Shown: in pieces, positions 3,001-12,000 of the stretch
Position numbering within the stretch: position 1 is the stretch's first letter
Layout: every line of letters starts with the position of its first letter
Source of the DNA: Nitrospiraceae bacterium
GTDB taxonomy: Bacteria; Nitrospirota; Nitrospiria; Nitrospirales; Nitrospiraceae
Length of the DNA stretch: 13,530 nucleotides
NCBI GenBank assembly: GCA_050246315.1
Contig: JBFWWG010000027.1
Location: forward strand, 1-13,530
Reading direction: 5' to 3'
Position numbers: made by a program

Positions 3001-6000
3001 CGTAGGTCGTCGTCCTCCAGCGACGGGTCGGCCACATCACCAAGGAAGACGCGATGGATGTTGGTCAGGAACAGGTTGCCGGTCTCGCGAACGATGCGTA
3101 CGTCGTCTTGGATGTGCAGGGTAAGCTGGAAATCGTCTCGCCAATTGCGGCCCTCGTGACCGTTGCGGGGAAGAATCGGGTCGTTGAAGAAAATCTTGAG
3201 ACCGTCGAAGTCTGCCCGCAGCCGGTCGAGGACGATGATATTCGGCGCAATGACGAGAAAGTTGCGGGAGAGAGCAGAGTCCGTTTCGTACAACTTGTGA
3301 AAGAAACTCCAGGCGATAAGGAGAGAGAGGACTTTCGTTTTGCCCGCGCCGGTCGCCATCTTCAAGACATACCGCGGCCAGTCTTCGTCGAACATTCCGG
3401 TTGACACCGCGCGCGACGCGTCGAACCGCATCAAATCGTATTTATCACGAGCGCGTTTGACCTCGAAGAGCCAGATCACCGTCTCCACCGCCTCCCGCTG
3501 GGCGAAGTAGTAGCGGAAGGGAGAGAGCGAGCCATCGGCGTTTTCGATCAGATGTTCGGTTTCAAACCAATGACGGAGCAGGGCTGCCGAGGTGACAGAC
3601 GTTCCGGCATATCCACTGTCTCGCCACGCGAAGACTTCCTCCCGAACTTTGGCCACAAGTGGCGGTAGGAGCTTCTCGTACGCCGTGCTGCGAAGTGCTT
3701 CGTCGGCTGGGAACCAACGCTGTTCTGGAATGAGCGGCGTGTATGGCGAGGTTGGGAAGGATGGATGAAGGGCCATGGTGCGCGAGAGTCTAGCCAATTC
3801 CCCCAGGTGGGGCAATGGCAATGCCGCATGCCAAGCTCTCGATGGCCGACCTGACAACCTCTGAAACCGGGTGCGTCAGGCTCGAATGGTGAAAGCCGAT
3901 AAGCAGGAGAAGGTCGTTGGTGTGAAACAGACGCCGACAGGTGCTTACGATCCTGCGCCTCTCGCTTCGAGGTGCAGTTCCTTCGGCGGAATTCGCGGCT
4001 CTCGTGGCGGGGGACCGCCCCAGATGAGCACGTCTGGACATAGGTCAGCGCCGTTCGGCCAAACAACCGCGCCTTCCTCTGCCCGGACTTCGCGAAACCG
4101 TGCGGGATCTTTGCGAATCGATTCGAAAACGGGCCCGACTAACAGCTCAGAAACATCTCGCTCAACCACGGAGCCGTCCGTCAGGGTCAGGCGCAGTCGA
4201 AACTGCTCGACCGGCATGGCTTGTTGTATGCGAAGCAATGACTTCATGTGTTGAGTTTACTCCAGGGGGGGCAATCGCTTGCAAAGTTTGTCCTGTGCGG
4301 GCTTGTTCCCAATCCTGTCGCAATTCCTCACGTCAGTTCCGGCATGATTCGCAGTCTAGCCATTCTGCCCAGAGCGGGGCAATGGGAATGCCGCCAGTCT
4401 GGTCTGCCCTGCTCCGGCTTGACAGGCCCTCAAACCGGGTGCTACCACGCTTCCTATGCTGAAAGTTGAAGAGCAGCGCGCTCCTGCGCAGGAGACGACT
4501 TCGCCTCCGCCGCAGACCGTCTCCCGTTGGTCGGGCGCAGCGCGGGAGCAGGCCGTGCAGCGGATGTTCACGGCCATCGCGCGCTGGTACGACCTCAACA
4601 ATACGGTCCTCAGTTTCGGGCTCCACCATCGCTGGAAGCGTCACGTGCTCGACCTGGTAATGCCACCAGAGGCCGGCGACTGCGGCGTCCGTAGCGGCAA
4701 TACATCGAGAACGCCGTTCGGCCAAGACCTCACGGCTAAAGAGGCCTCCGGCGGTGCCGAGCCGCGTTACATCTTGGACATCGGCGCCGGCACAGCCGAT
4801 CTCGCGCTCTTGATCGAATCCCGGTTGCAACCGGACGGCCGCGTCATCGCGGCCGATCTCAACCATGCCATGCTCGTGGAAGGACAGCGGAAGGTCGAAC
4901 GCAAGGGACTCCGGAGCCGAATCACCTGCATGGAGGTGAACGCCGAACACCTGAGCTTCCCGGATGGCAGTTTCGACGCCGTCACCACAGGCTTTTGCAT
5001 GAGGAACGTGGGTGACCTTCAACTGGCCTTACAAGAAATCCAGCGGGTGCTCAAGCCGGGCGGCCGGTTCGTCTGCCTGGAATTTTCCCATCCTGATCGG
5101 GCCTGGCTGCGCCGCCTCTACGATTGGTATTCGTTCACCCTGCTCCCGAAGGTCGGCACGATGGTCGCCCACGACACCACCGGGGTCTATGAGTACCTGC
5201 CGGCGTCGATCCGGACCTTTCCCGATCAGGAAACTCTGTGCGAGCGATTGCGCCAGGCCGGATTCCGTGACGTGACCTATCGGAACCTGACCGGCGGCAT
5301 CGTGGCGATCCACAGCGCGGTGAAATAACGTCAGGGGTCATTCGTCGGACGAACGCGTCATTCGTCAAACGTAGGAAGGAGACGCCAGGCCTCACCGGAC
5401 AAGGTCTACACGATTGACGCATGACGATTCTCTTTTTGTTGCGATTGACTAATGACGATTGACGGTTGACGTCCTATGAAATCCATTCTCTACGTTTTCC
5501 TCCCCTGCAAGCAGGTGTACCCGATCGGGATCACCTACCTGGCCGACTTCGTCCATCGCCGCCGCCCCGATGTCCGCCAGCAGATCCTTGATCTGTCGCT
5601 CTACCCGCAGGCCCAGCGGCCGGCGGTCTTGCGCGATGCGGTCTCCGCCTTTTCGCCTGACTTGGTGGCCTTCTCCTGGCGCGACATTCAGATCTTCTCG
5701 CCCCATGAAGGCGACGCCTCGTTGGAACATGCGTTCAATTTTTATTTCGCGAGCAACCCGCTCAAGCGAGTCGCGGCCTCGTTCCAAGGATTGAAGCAAC
5801 TGTACCGGTACTATTCGGACATCCGAGCCAATCTGTCGTACCCCTGGCTGATCCGGAAGGAGTTCCCCCAGGCCAAGATCATGATCGGCGGCGGCGCCTT
5901 CACCGCCTTTGCCGATCAATTGATGGAAAAGCTCCCCGAAGGCGTGCTCGGGATTCTCGGCGAAGGGGAGGACGCGCTGATCAAGGTCATCGACGGGCAA

Positions 6001-9000: not shown

Positions 9001-12000
9001 TTCAAGAGGCGGCCTCCGAGGAGTACAGCCCGATTTTCGCCAACAAAGGCGCCGGCACCTCGGCGGAGGCGGAAGCCCTGCTGAAGGGTACCAGCGGGAC
9101 GAATGGTACGCATGGCTCAACGGCCAACGGCCGTGACCACCAGGCTCAACCGGCCGCTGCAGCGGATGCCGGTGCAGCAGTGATGAGGGCGAGCGAGCCG
9201 CAGGCGGTCCAGTCCGATCCCTATGTCTGGACGGCCGATGCCCAAGCGAGGCTTGAGCGGGCGCCCGAAGGATTCATGCGCGACTGCACCAGGGCCCTGA
9301 TTCTCCGCCATGCGGAGAAGATCGGAACCACCACCATCACCATTGAAGTAGCCAATGAGGGCATCGAAGAATCCAAGAAGTACATGGAAGAGGCCCTCAA
9401 GACCGGGAATCTCAAGACCATCATCGCGGACCTCACGGGGAAACCTAGTGCGTAGAACCCAGTGCTGAGTGGAAAGAACGCGCCCGGGAAAAGGCATTGA
9501 TTATTCAGTCCTCAGCACTCAGAACTCAGCACTAAAGAGACATGGGTAAATCGCTTCCGATCCTGAATATCCCCGGTTTGGCCGATCAACTGGGCTCCTT
9601 CGCCGGGCAGATCCAGAAGTTCATGTCCGGCTCCTTGCCGACTCCTGGTCCCGGGGACGGCCGGACCGTCGATGACTTCAAGCCCTATCTGATCGCGCTC
9701 AACCTGACCAAACGCTGCAACCTCAAGTGCGCGCACTGCTACCTGGATGCCACCACCAAAGCCGGCGGCGCCTCCGACGAACTGACGACCGAAGAATCCT
9801 TCCGCCTGATCGACCAGATCGCGGAGGTCAATCGCGGATGCCTGCTCGTTATCACCGGCGGGGAGCCGTTAGTCCGCCCGGACATTCTCGACATCGCCCG
9901 GTATGCGGTCGCCAAGGGGTTCATCGTCGTGTTCGGGACCAACGGCATGCTGATCAATGACCGGATGGCCAAGACGCTGGTGGAGATCGGCGTCATGGGC
10001 GTGGGCATCAGCATTGACTCGCTCGACAAGGAGAAACACGATCGGTTCCGGGGCGTGCCGGGAGCCTGGGAAGATGCCGTGGCCGGCATCGAAGCTTGCA
10101 AACGAAACGGGCTTCAGTTCCAGGTGCATTTCAGCGCCCAGCCGATGAACTATCAGGAACTGCCCCAGGTGATCGACTGGGCGCACGGCTTAGGCGCCAG
10201 AGTGGTCAACATCTTCTTCATGGTCTGCACCGGCCGCGGTGAAGAGCTGACCGACATCACGCCGACTCAATATGAAGAGGTCCTGACCTATCTGGTCGAT
10301 TGCCAGGACAAGTACAAGGACATGCTGGTGCGGGCGCGCTGCGCCCCCCATTTCAAGCGATTGGCTTACGAGAAGGATCCGAATTCCCCGCTCACCAAGG
10401 CCACCGGCTACATGGGCGGCGGCTGCTTGGCCGCGACCAACTATGCCAGGGTGACCCCCAACGGAGAGCTGACCCCCTGCCCTTATATGCCGCTCTCCGC
10501 CGGCAACGTGCGGGAGACCAGCTTCGTGGACCTGTGGGAGCGCTCGCCGATCTTCGACTCGTTCCGCTATCCCCATTTGAAGGGCAAGTGCGGCGATTGC
10601 GAATACAGCGAGATCTGCGGCGGCTGCCGGGCACGCCCGTATGTCGATCACGGCGATTGGCTCGACGAGGATCAGTGGTGTCTGTACACCCCGAAGGGAG
10701 GCGAGAAGGTTCAGGTGGCCTTCAATACGCCCGAAGAGTCCGAGGTCGCCTGGGATGAGGCGGCGCAAGTCCGGCTCAGCCGCATTCCCTACTTTCTCCG
10801 CGCCATGGTCAAGAAGGGCGTCGAACGACACGCACGCGAGCAGGGTCTCCCCCTCGTGACGGTGGAGCTGATGGAGGAGCTGCGCAAGAAGCGCTTCGGC
10901 AACGACGCGCCGGTGTTCAAGTTCTAACGAGTTGCGGAAGCACTCGATGTGTATGCTTCGACAGGCTCAGCACGATCGGAAAACACCGGTATAGTCCATG
11001 ATCGCCCCGTTCGTCCTGAGGCCCTCGAAGGATGAACGGAGGGGTTTACCGCAGCCTGCTGAGTGTTGAGTGCTCTGTGCTGAGTGCTGAGTTTCGGATA
11101 GGCCAGTGGTGGATTTAGAAATGCTCGACATTCAATCCTCCGCACGGCTTATGGTTGAGGAATACCCAGCCCTGAGCACCTAACACTCGGCACTTCCTGT
11201 GGCTTAGGAACACTGAGCACCCAGCACTGTTACGCGCATGACCGCTCTCACGAACATCGCCACCGACCTCAATACCCTCCTGCCGATCATCAACCATTGG
11301 TTCCACCTGGTGTCGGCGGTCATTTGGATCGGCGGGTTGGCGTTCCTCGTCCTGGTGGTCACGCCGGGTCTTCAGAAATCGATCCCCAAGGAATACGTGA
11401 AGCCGCTGGCCGACATCTTCTACCGCCAATACAAGAAGATCATCGGCCTGGTGTTGATCGTCATTCTGTTCACCGGCGGCCTGAATCTCCATTTCATCAA
11501 CAAAATGATGATCGCCCAACTGGGCGAGACCGGCGGAGTCGCTCACAACGCCAAGTATCTCACGATCTTCTTCATCAAACTGTCGCTCGTGCTCGTCGTC
11601 CTGACCCTCTTTCTCTATACCGTGGTCTTCAAGAGTGACGCCACGGGAGACGAGGACGCCGAGGAGCGGCAGGAGCAGTACGAAGAACCGGTCCCGTTTC
11701 AAAAACTGGGGCTGGTTCTCGGCCTCTTCATCATCCTCTGCGCCGCAGCCCTGAAATACCTGCATTTCTGACCAGCGTAGCCTCTGCATCTCGCTGCCCT
11801 CCCGCCAGAGTACAAATCTTGAGTTTTCTCCATCCCCTTGCTACCCTTTTGTCAGTTATTCCAATATCTGAGTAGGGGCCATCGCATGTCACCTCAAGCC
11901 CACCGAATCAAGCTGACCTATGGGGACTATCTCTCCTTCCCCGAGGACGGGAAACGCCATGAACTGATCGACGGAGACCACTACGTGACCCCTTCGCCGA

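Follow-up and report, generated by a model that had tools for sequence, protein, structure and literature searches.

A conserved Nitrospiraceae locus probably joins a methyl-plastoquinone gene pair to a separate unit that may serve oxidase haem

Background

Synthesis of methyl-plastoquinone (mPQ) was described as a pathway of MpqC, MpqA, MpqD/X, MpqQ and MpqE, with a Leptospirillum cluster containing LFE_2124 (Elling et al. 2025, PMC11874023). In E. coli, MpqE orthologues have been shown to yield mPQ8, with methylation at C2, and the known C5/C6 methylase, MpqQ, accounted for only 7 of 62 genomes; no C1 hydroxylase was named, mpq genes were reported not to be co-localised outside Leptospirillum, and the B12 enzyme was read as probably not involved (PMC11874023). 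The supplement of that paper already covered the spread of the LFE_2124-type gene, its link to mPQ and its likeness to slr0320, along with a negative test, in which E. coli ubiIF and ubiIHF mutants with three LFE_2124 homologues gave no methylation, and with the observation that N. marina, a cobalamin auxotroph, made mPQ without added cobalamin. As of October 2025, mPQ had no known candidate for its C1 hydroxylase, and cyanobacterial plastoquinone lacked a clear C5/C6 methylase (PMC12998194). The slr0320 mutant of Synechocystis is impaired in QA-to-QB transfer, and its authors floated plastoquinone methylation (PMC8065906). UbiN is a single enzyme able to replace UbiD plus UbiH (PMC10626278, PMC12998194).

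Locus organization

The window is the whole stretch of DNA analysed, 13,530 nucleotides of contig JBFWWG010000027.1 from a Nitrospiraceae bacterium (GCA_050246315.1, here G000). Four plus-strand open reading frames given in a preliminary description were confirmed in the sequence, with the domain content as described except that Pfam finds three PCP_red repeats in the Usp protein, not two; a fifth conserved gene, CopD-like, had been missed. The features are as follows.

4419-4448, plus strand: sigma70-type promoter-like site before mpqE (TTGACA ... TGcTACCAC)
4456-5328, plus strand: mpqE, 290 aa, predicted C2 methyltransferase of mPQ; unit 1
5476-7119, plus strand: B12-binding radical SAM gene of the LFE_2124/slr0320 type, 547 aa, PF02310 and PF04055; unit 1
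7175-7204, plus strand: conserved promoter-like site of the sigma70 type, with an extended -10, lying roughly 100 nt upstream of the Usp gene; putative start of unit 2
7305-9455, plus strand: tandem-Usp/PCP_red gene (Pfam), 716 aa; first gene of unit 2
9542-10927, plus strand: AhbD-like radical SAM/SPASM gene with C-terminal PCP_red, 461 aa; second gene of unit 2
11238-11771, plus strand: CopD/DUF4149-like gene for a four-helix membrane protein; third gene of unit 2

Synteny was scored in 80 Nitrospiraceae-type loci, with flank-length filters applied per junction. The Usp gene adjoined the AhbD-like gene in 70/70 loci (at least 1.8 kb downstream), the B12 gene lay immediately upstream of the Usp gene in 52/56 (at least 3.5 kb upstream), and the CopD-like gene followed the module in 61/61 (at least 3.5 kb downstream). 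The order mpqE-B12-Usp was counted by script in 51/56 loci, the exceptions being four without the B12 gene and one rejected only for abutting hits. Median best-segment identities were 62, 81, 82 and 83% for mpqE, the B12, Usp and AhbD-like genes, which closely reproduced the conserved order and identities described before.

The promoter-like site ahead of the Usp gene was present in 58 of 61 intergenic regions with a fixed 18-nt spacer (shuffle mean 0.02), and the same pattern was absent from the other junctions (0/56, 0/68 and 0/69); ahead of mpqE, 43 of 58 loci matched a looser pattern, as a raw match count without shuffle comparison. The B12 gene and the unit 2 module lie far apart in the sister family f2, and are also unlinked in f3. 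Neither mpqE nor the B12 gene was found in 36 distant metagenome loci of the module (0/36), which gave one weak methylase match at 29%. A single four-gene operon would lack an internal promoter and stay linked across lineages, and the locus does neither; one conserved operon headed by mpqE is not borne out. Because of the conserved internal promoter-like site, the separation in f2 and the 36 distant loci, we regard the locus as very likely two transcription units, neighbours only in Nitrospiraceae. The two-unit explanation as a whole, with all its functions inferred, is somewhat favoured.

Unit 2 and cytochrome bd-like oxidases

The Usp protein has two Usp domains in tandem, which carry helical inserts with His residues, together with the three PCP_red repeats and a rubredoxin-like Cys4 knuckle (C465/468/480/483); its identity across the order is 86-96%, and H37, H44, H72, H211, H239 and H302 are at least 90% conserved among 99 sequences. 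The model of residues 1-395 (pLDDT 96) has a tandem-Usp fold (Z 28.7 to Rv2623), and both Usp domains carry the ATP-type motif G-2x-G-9x-G-S of tandem ATP-binding Usp proteins. PCP_red repeats also occur on three other G000 proteins.

The AhbD-like enzyme has CX3CX2C at C59/63/66 and an eight-cysteine SPASM region (C267-C380, CX20-33CX17CX36-37CX2CX5CX2CX17-35C) with the spacing of AhbD. It scored 316 bits against TIGR04545 and 327 bits against TIGR04055, both below the cut-off of 500; five other module enzymes scored 256-331 bits against TIGR04545, and the range for all six was 256-331 bits versus 444 and 528 bits for two true AhbD copies. A quick tree separated three AhbD rows from the module enzymes (95), with an unreliable root, Cys229 of the module enzymes is Pro in AhbD, and at least 10 module genomes carry a second, shorter AhbD copy alongside. 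By sequence, the enzyme is probably a paralogue of AhbD.

The CopD-like protein has four helices by hydropathy and an invariant His and Lys in alignment; it scored 21.4 against CopD PF05425, below the cut-off of 32.1. HemJ PF03653 gave no match among the module's own CopD-like members, the sole match (1/23) being an unrelated paralogue. His and Lys are the haem ligands of HemJ. A HemY-like oxidase holds the third-gene position in 13 of the 36 distant loci.

Co-occurrence was analysed across 148 genomes from beyond the four nearest families (f1-f4). Module and OR-N bd-like CydA were both present in 17, the module only in 2 (G006 and G022), the oxidase only in 0, and neither in 129; for module and B12 gene, 3 genomes had both, 16 only the module, 24 only the B12 gene and 105 neither. 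The module is patchy within families (f9 4/53, f8 1/7, f20 1/3), a bd-like gene lies within 9 kb of it in 9 of the 36 distant loci, and most outside carriers have UbiD-family genes, with 16/19 lacking the B12 gene. Unit 2 thus does not follow the quinone, and outside f1-f4 tracks OR-N cytochrome bd-like oxidases.

On balance we take unit 2 to be a maturation unit for oxidase haem, a tetrapyrrole side branch for OR-N bd-like oxidases. The putative AhbD paralogue would act by radical chemistry on a side chain of a porphyrin(ogen), the HemY-like or CopD-like third product would oxidise or pass on the tetrapyrrole ring, and the ATP-type Usp protein would bind or deliver haem, or gate the AhbD-like enzyme; the product could be a modified haem or extra haem b. 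A possible but less probable reading is that an AhbD isoenzyme plus accessory protein, co-acquired with haem-hungry oxidase operons, forms another oxygen-independent way to make ordinary haem b, which would fit the full AhbD cysteine spacing, the nearest families (AhbD and NirJ2) and the HemY-like neighbour, and would back up ChdC at low oxygen, ChdC being peroxide-dependent. Anaerobic carriers, however, are already equipped with a true AhbD, which in G144 sits within a hemE-hemH-hemY operon, and the lower scores of the six module enzymes, conserved differences such as Cys229, and the need for a His-rich Usp partner, which AhbD lacks, also argue against it. A protein-modifying role unconnected with porphyrins, with a subunit of an oxidase or of nitrite oxidoreductase or else a PCP_red repeat protein as its target, is improbable: SPASM enzymes include peptide maturases, and PCP_red repeats are found on both partners and the three other proteins, but haem families score 316-327 bits versus at most 148 for peptide maturases, and the neighbours include HemY-like and HmuY.

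Unit 1 and probable ring methylation

The window mpqE scored 385 bits against the MpqE profile NF052510 (cut-off 335), which identifies it as a true MpqE by profile; by analogy with its orthologues, it would add the C2 methyl of the mPQ ring. The B12 gene adjoins mpqE in 14 of 15 loci from seven other families, which bears out the pairing beyond Leptospirillum; the pair is adjacent across eight families, accompanied by mpqC/mpqA in two, and the MpqE cut-off was passed in the three of the eight that were checked. A place in the quinone pathway is very likely for the B12 gene; this link, proposed in the preliminary description, is supported here but was already in the supplement cited above.

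Its product contains a B12-binding domain (PF02310, 33.9 versus a cut-off of 32.1) and a PF04055 barrel with CX3CX2C, the cysteines C234/238/241 being invariant in 16 aligned sequences. The best family, NF045585 rSAM_slr0320, gave 441 bits versus a cut-off of 775 (495 for the f13 homologue), scores that mark the protein as a sister group of rSAM_slr0320 and not a member. TsrM was the top Foldseek match of the predicted structure (E 2.7e-21), in which a helical insert (residues about 82-129) may contact the membrane.

The B12 gene was found in 77/79 genomes of eight families and 0/121 of the other 18; f13 has it in 13/13, with UbiD in 0/13 and the module in 0/13. It was found in 228/244 Nitrospiraceae genomes. 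MpqQ occurred in 9 of the 16 without it and in 43 of the 228 with it (Fisher p 0.0016; kin not independent), so that a match to the B12 gene persists in 43 carriers of MpqQ. Locus inspection left 12 real losses or disruptions, 10 of them with MpqQ: a cassette of mpqQ and a flavin monooxygenase (FMO) gene sits inside the disrupted B12 gene in G398, G402, G404 and G365, mpqQ lies directly 3' of mpqE in G053 and G316, and two closed genomes retain a B12-gene remnant (G263) or frameshifts (G265). All four MpqQ carriers among 53 genomes of genus g6 lack the B12 gene. MpqQ was not found in the clean losses G310 and G311 (drafts, 90 and 95% complete), in G001, or, as an orthologue at E<=1e-25, in G000. 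Independent loss events are few: two among loci in the tree, and an estimated four to six overall.

Despite the negative E. coli test, the B12 enzyme is probably the default or ancestral C5/C6 methylase of mPQ, and published labelling is compatible with class B radical SAM methylation. Like TsrM on tryptophan, it would move the intact SAM methyl via cobalamin onto the electron-rich prenylated ring, and the arrival of a cyanobacteria-derived MpqQ would make it dispensable; since the cassette carries both mpqQ and the FMO gene, displacement alone does not tell which of them replaces the B12 enzyme. That the gene plays no part in making mPQ, its position and losses being incidental, is the published reading and agrees with the heterologous tests, the N. 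marina observation (PMC11874023 SI) and two or three losses in which MpqQ was not found, but is unlikely given the mpqE adjacency in eight families (with mpqC/mpqA in two), strict confinement to families of the mPQ type, repeated decay where MpqQ is present and the slr0320 defect (PMC8065906). Still harder to sustain is an oxygen-independent, BchE-like ring hydroxylase or decarboxylase displaced by the cassette FMO, to which that FMO and the missing methylation in E. coli would point: an FMO coexists with an intact B12 gene in nearly all f1, f2, f3, f8 and f13 genomes, so that loss should not wait for MpqQ, families without an FMO have UbiU/V, about 80% of genomes, being without MpqQ, would be left with no C5/C6 methylase, and the closest fold is a methylase.

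C1 hydroxylation

The class A FMO of G000 lies outside the window (C2:278773-280008). FMO was found in five mPQ-type families (34/35 at orthologue level, 14/14, 2/2, 7/7 and 13/13) and in 0/129 elsewhere; families without it carry UbiU-like/UbiV, and UbiV was co-present in one of five FMO-bearing genomes tested. The FMO gene closes a ubiA-ubiD operon in 4/4 f8 loci fetched. Four copies scored 85-132 bits against TIGR01988 (UbiH/UbiF/Coq6; cut-off 225), all Ubi hydroxylase cut-offs were missed, the nearest family was PRK06185, and the f13 FMO is only 29-34% identical. The FAD monooxygenase had been set aside as of unclear role; its family profile, the f8 operon and the cassette make it the leading candidate for the step that lacks an enzyme. 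It is likely the C1 hydroxylase of the mPQ pathway and, by analogy with UbiN, perhaps slightly favoured to decarboxylate as well where UbiD is absent.

UbiD was not found in G000, as described before, nor in any family genome (0/35) or sister-family genome (0/14), and U32 gave no match in G000. The earlier proposal that the AhbD-like enzyme and its Usp partner, in one operon, account for the unassigned decarboxylation or C1 hydroxylation drew on the tight synteny in Nitrospiraceae, the oxidative decarboxylation of AhbD (PMC10452713) and the lack of UbiD in f1 and f2, and is extremely unlikely, since f13 has neither UbiD nor the module while keeping the B12 gene (13/13), 16/19 outside module carriers lack the B12 gene and most have UbiD-family genes, the module tracks bd-like oxidases, has its own promoter-like site and is unlinked in f2 and f3, and the FMO is a better candidate.

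Implications

For each of the two gaps, C1 hydroxylation and C5/C6 methylation, natural knock-outs now suggest one gene. A broader scheme is speculative and rather doubtful as a whole: the slr0320/LFE_2124 family would be the ancestral cobalamin-dependent C5/C6 methylase of mPQ and cyanobacterial plastoquinone, a new FMO clade (or UbiU/V elsewhere) would close the mPQ pathway by decarboxylative hydroxylation, and the Usp/PCP_red-radical SAM module would make a haem not described before, for use in the terminal oxidase that nitrite oxidisers have. If true, plastoquinone-type synthesis would be cobalamin-dependent in most producers, with consequences for the place of B12 in the ecology of nitrifiers and cyanobacteria, and for the proposal that high-potential quinones arose once. 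Unit 2, a three-gene set (Usp/PCP_red, AhbD-like, CopD-like) undescribed before, offers a handle on which haems are carried by OR-N oxidases, presumed to act as the terminal oxidase in Nitrospirales.

Comparison with known systems

The locus shares with the mPQ pathway (PMC11874023) an MpqE orthologue with a B12 radical SAM gene next to it, and differs in that the two genes adjoin each other in each of the eight families and that mpqQ displaces the B12 gene in place. Synechocystis Slr0320 (PMC8065906) has the same architecture and its family is the best NCBIfam match, though with a cut-off well above the window protein's score, and quinones were never measured in the slr0320 mutant. TsrM and the class B cobalamin radical SAM methylases (PDB 6wtf, 9ccb, 7kdx), the top fold matches, share the B12 domain and radical SAM barrel, at 16-17% identity and without the helical insert. 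UbiN, UbiH and PlqH (PMC10626278, PMC12998194) are class A FMOs like that of G000, which stays under all Ubi cut-offs, nearest PRK06185. The tandem Usp proteins Rv2623 and TTHA0350 share the fold and ATP-type motif, and the C-terminal PCP_red domain of DPOR BchB (2kru) the helical bundle, whereas the window protein fuses long His-bearing helical inserts, PCP_red repeats and a Cys4 knuckle. AhbD (TIGR04545) and NirJ2 (TIGR04055) share CX3CX2C and the full eight-cysteine SPASM spacing at 36-40% identity; the window enzyme differs in scoring below both cut-offs, in its C-terminal PCP_red and Usp partner, in coexisting with true AhbD, and in following the bd-like oxidases.

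Gene content and order

The four plus-strand reading frames of the preliminary description were recovered, and their order is well preserved across 80 related loci.

Features of the window (position, strand, feature)
1-1206, -, protein with the Fic-type motif HPFRDGNGR (variable left arm)
1062-3857, -, type III restriction Res subunit (variable left arm)
3945-4247, -, DUF2442 gene (variable left arm)
4456-5328, +, mpqE
5476-7119, +, B12-binding radical SAM gene (B12 gene)
7175-7204, sigma70-type site
7236-7258, hairpin between the B12 gene and the Usp gene
7305-9455, +, Usp gene
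9542-10927, +, AhbD-like radical SAM gene
11238-11771, CopD-like gene
11838-12446, +, Uma2 nuclease-like gene

The mpqE product scores 385 against the curated MpqE cut-off of 335, the B12 gene is closest to the cyanobacterial slr0320 family (441 bits, under the cut-off of 775), and the fourth gene is AhbD/NirJ2-like (316/327 bits, cut-offs 500) with a PCP_red tail. For the Usp gene, the two Usp domains and the Cys4 knuckle were borne out, and three PCP_red repeats were counted in place of two. The fifth gene encodes a CopD-like membrane protein, for which a solved structural relative was sought and none found, and is next in line in 61/61 loci of sufficient length. The Uma2 nuclease-like gene lies outside this module and occurs in only one of the 80 related loci. 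In the source family (f1), an insert of ~30 residues at residues ~70-100 of the mpqE product divides its Pfam match in two.

Two probable units

A single quinone operon had been proposed, which is contradicted by a promoter-like site before the Usp gene and by the separation of the units in two families. The sigma70-type site, ~100 nt 5′ of the Usp gene, is present in 58/61 loci with a fixed spacer (0.02 in shuffles; 0/56, 0/68 and 0/69 at the other three junctions). In the sister family f2, the Usp-radical SAM-CopD trio is divergent beside SAM-cycle-like genes (named by eye), with mpqE and the B12 gene paired elsewhere, and in f3 the trio stands beside other genes, with mpqE and the B12 gene together at another place; all five genes adjoin in f1 only. 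The sequence thus argues, with little room for doubt, for two putative units, mpqE plus the B12 gene and the Usp-radical SAM-CopD module. RNA contigs from three studies touch parts of all five genes, but are uninformative on co-transcription, since none spans the stretch and strand and level are absent. These contigs join the intergenic regions ~5330-5470 and 10940-11060; numerous free contig ends and deep coverage around 11060 suggest a repeated intergenic element.

The B12 gene and MpqQ

MpqQ, the known C5/C6 methylase of methyl-plastoquinone (mPQ), was found in only 7/62 genomes (PMC11874023 SI), so a further C5/C6 methylase must exist. According to the same SI, LFE_2124 is linked to slr0320, the labelling data permit class B enzymes, N. 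marina produces mPQ without added B12 although auxotrophic for it, and no methylation followed when three LFE_2124 homologues were expressed in ubiIF or ubiIHF mutants of E. coli. An slr0320 mutant has a QA-to-QB defect, quinones not being measured in the available text (PMC8065906).

When 200 genomes sampled from the phylum were screened, 77/79 in eight families carried the B12 gene, as did 0/121 in the other 18 families. mpqE lies immediately 5′ of it in 14/15 fetched loci from seven non-f1 families, and the pair is followed by ubiC-like and ubiA genes in f11 and by ubiA in f13. In G053, one of two f1 genomes without the B12 gene, its place is occupied by a methylase and a flavin monooxygenase (FMO). 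The closest named matches of this methylase (79-94%) are MPBQ/MSBQ methylases of N. japonica, Ca. N. kreftii, N. inopinata and cyanobacteria, and the three Nitrospira are listed as MpqQ carriers (Table S2, PMC11874023); judged by sequence, the G053 methylase is MpqQ. A bona fide MpqQ query did not find MpqQ in the source genome.

A search of 244 f1 genomes (the unpublished G233 and G236 enter these tallies only) recovered the B12 gene from 228 and MpqQ from 52, the latter in 9/16 genomes without a B12 match vs 43/228 with the gene. Five of the 16 were dropped because mpqE was also not found (G211, G221, G375) or a contig end cuts the gene (G335, G374). Locus inspection gave 12 real lesions, G265 included. 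An mpqQ+FMO cassette lies within the B12 gene in G398, G402, G404 and G365, leaving a C-terminal remnant in 4/4 and an N-terminal one in two; mpqQ is directly 3′ of mpqE in G053 and G316; 35 codons are left in G263 (closed), three frameshifted pieces in G265 (closed) and an internal remnant in G325; and the gene is cleanly deleted in G095 (closed) and in the drafts G310 and G311. MpqQ is present in 10/12, G310 and G311 being those in which it was not found. Four more loci lack the B12 gene, three of them with MpqQ, and were not added owing to possible overlap with the 244 genomes. Among the loci placed in the tree, two separate B12-gene losses are seen. The cassette (L254-L259, L261) is 83-97% identical over three genera and so apparently mobile.

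From these genomes we infer that the B12 gene product would act as the default C5/C6 methylase of mPQ. The nearest structure to its model is TsrM, which methylates an aromatic carbon. The negative E. coli test may stem from poor cobalamin loading, which is common, or from a wrong substrate, conceivable because no carboxylated intermediate was offered.

The FMO and the C1 step

The mPQ C1 hydroxylase had no candidate in October 2025 in the available text of PMC12998194. The cassette FMO has a single-copy orthologue in the source genome (C2:278773-280008; L145:8753-10027, -) and occurs in 34/35 f1, 14/14 f2, 2/2 f3, 7/7 f8 and 13/13 f13 genomes, and in 0/129 of those remaining, so that it is confined to mPQ-type families. 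It is the last gene of a ubiA-ubiD operon in 4/4 fetched f8 loci, and coordinates place it 3-5 kb to the 3′ side of ubiD in 6/7 f8 genomes. In cassette recipients, the second FMO copy is only fragments (G398, G263) or absent (G365). On this genomic evidence the FMO is the best candidate for the C1 hydroxylase, and quite probably the enzyme concerned. UbiD is missing in exactly f1, f2 and f13 among the families compared, where the FMO could also decarboxylate, as does UbiN, a decarboxylating FMO (PMC10626278, available text); by this analogy, such a second role is slightly favoured.

UbiU-like and UbiV genes were found in the three FMO-less mPQ-type families (f12 5/6, f11 1/1; UbiU-like in f4) at L265:4489-6416 (G022), L266:4803-6860 (G013) and L268:3855-4844 (G110), and UbiV also in 1/5 FMO-bearing genomes tested. 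An oxygen-independent mPQ route is possible in the FMO-less families. These genes lie outside the phyla usually cited for UbiUV.

The module and bd-like oxidases

The module had been read as a quinone decarboxylase or hydroxylase, a reading rejected here because of its phyletic profile and its own promoter-like site. Of 148 genomes outside f1-f4, 17 have both the fused radical SAM gene and a bd-like CydA like that of the source genome, 2 (drafts) have just the former, none has just the oxidase and 129 have neither; the same radical SAM gene vs the B12 gene gave both in 3, module only in 16, B12 only in 24 and neither in 105. Within families the module occurs patchily, which speaks against shared descent as the sole cause, although kin are not independent. 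A bd-like gene lies at the module locus in L107 and L113 (Pfam) and L106, L108 and L109 (coordinates), the L113 locus running on into a nitrate-reductase-like operon. Among 80 metagenome loci, the 36 distant ones (Usp <70%) hold the radical SAM gene in 26, a HemY-like oxidase in 13, a bd-like gene in 9, the CopD-like gene in 3 and the B12 gene in 0. The bd-like proteins are consistent with the OR-N family, which the text available describes as quinol-independent (bioRxiv 2021.01.16.426971) and presumes to serve Nitrospirales as terminal oxidase (PMC12342949).

The Usp core is 86-96% identical throughout the order and also occurs in scattered members of other classes, with named homologues from Nitrospinota, Mariprofundaceae and Acidobacteriota, and the gene adjoins a PCP_red-fused radical SAM gene in 19/20 distant regions fetched. 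ESM Atlas matches were generic Usp clusters only. In the model, paired histidines on inserted helices of the Usp domains (H44/H72, H211/H239) are suggestive of haem or metal binding. A true AhbD of shorter length is also encoded by anaerobic module carriers (bit scores 528 and 444, one of the two genes within a hemE-hemH-hemY operon), and hemE-hemH-hemY as well as two ChdC/Cld-family genes are present in the source genome itself; as far as genomes indicate, the module therefore probably supplies an additional tetrapyrrole function linked to the oxidase. A quick tree of the radical SAM proteins, with over-long outgroups, an unreliable root and most near-identical f1 rows omitted, sets three AhbD rows apart.

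Three further PCP_red repeat proteins are encoded in the source genome (C6:150314-151018, C6:165256-165546, C4:93544-93831), of which one carries four repeats, another is encoded behind an Mrp/NUBPL ATPase and a third lies inside the bd-like oxidase cluster. At L096:8061-9159 (contig C1), a second CopD-like gene (weak PF03653 match) is followed by a further AhbD-like radical SAM gene broken into two pieces, with a hemerythrin-domain gene and a Usp gene nearby. Lineage-specific genes without a Pfam match stand directly 3′ of the module radical SAM gene: ~224-253 aa (L112:5263-5934, L114:11388-12146, L115:11560-12288), 91-105 aa (L107:12793-13065 and kin) and 118 aa (L102:2126-2479, followed by HmuY).

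Comparison with known systems

A literature search found no paper on the module, on mpqQ taking the place of the B12 gene or on the FMO, nor on PF08369 with radical SAM; supplements of the OR-N preprint on operon context may mention the module, and the available text of PMC12324825 and bioRxiv 2025.09.17.676790 holds nothing further on these three. The corrected two-unit picture, in which functional assignments except MpqE are drawn from genomes, opens three questions to direct test. The module radical SAM protein shares the exact cysteine spacing of AhbD as given in the available text of PMC10452713. In the text available of Elling et al. 2025 (PMC11874023), the cluster mpqA-mpqC-LFE_2124-mpqE is described for Leptospirillum and mpq genes elsewhere as not co-localised, whereas here mpqE adjoins the B12 gene in other families too.
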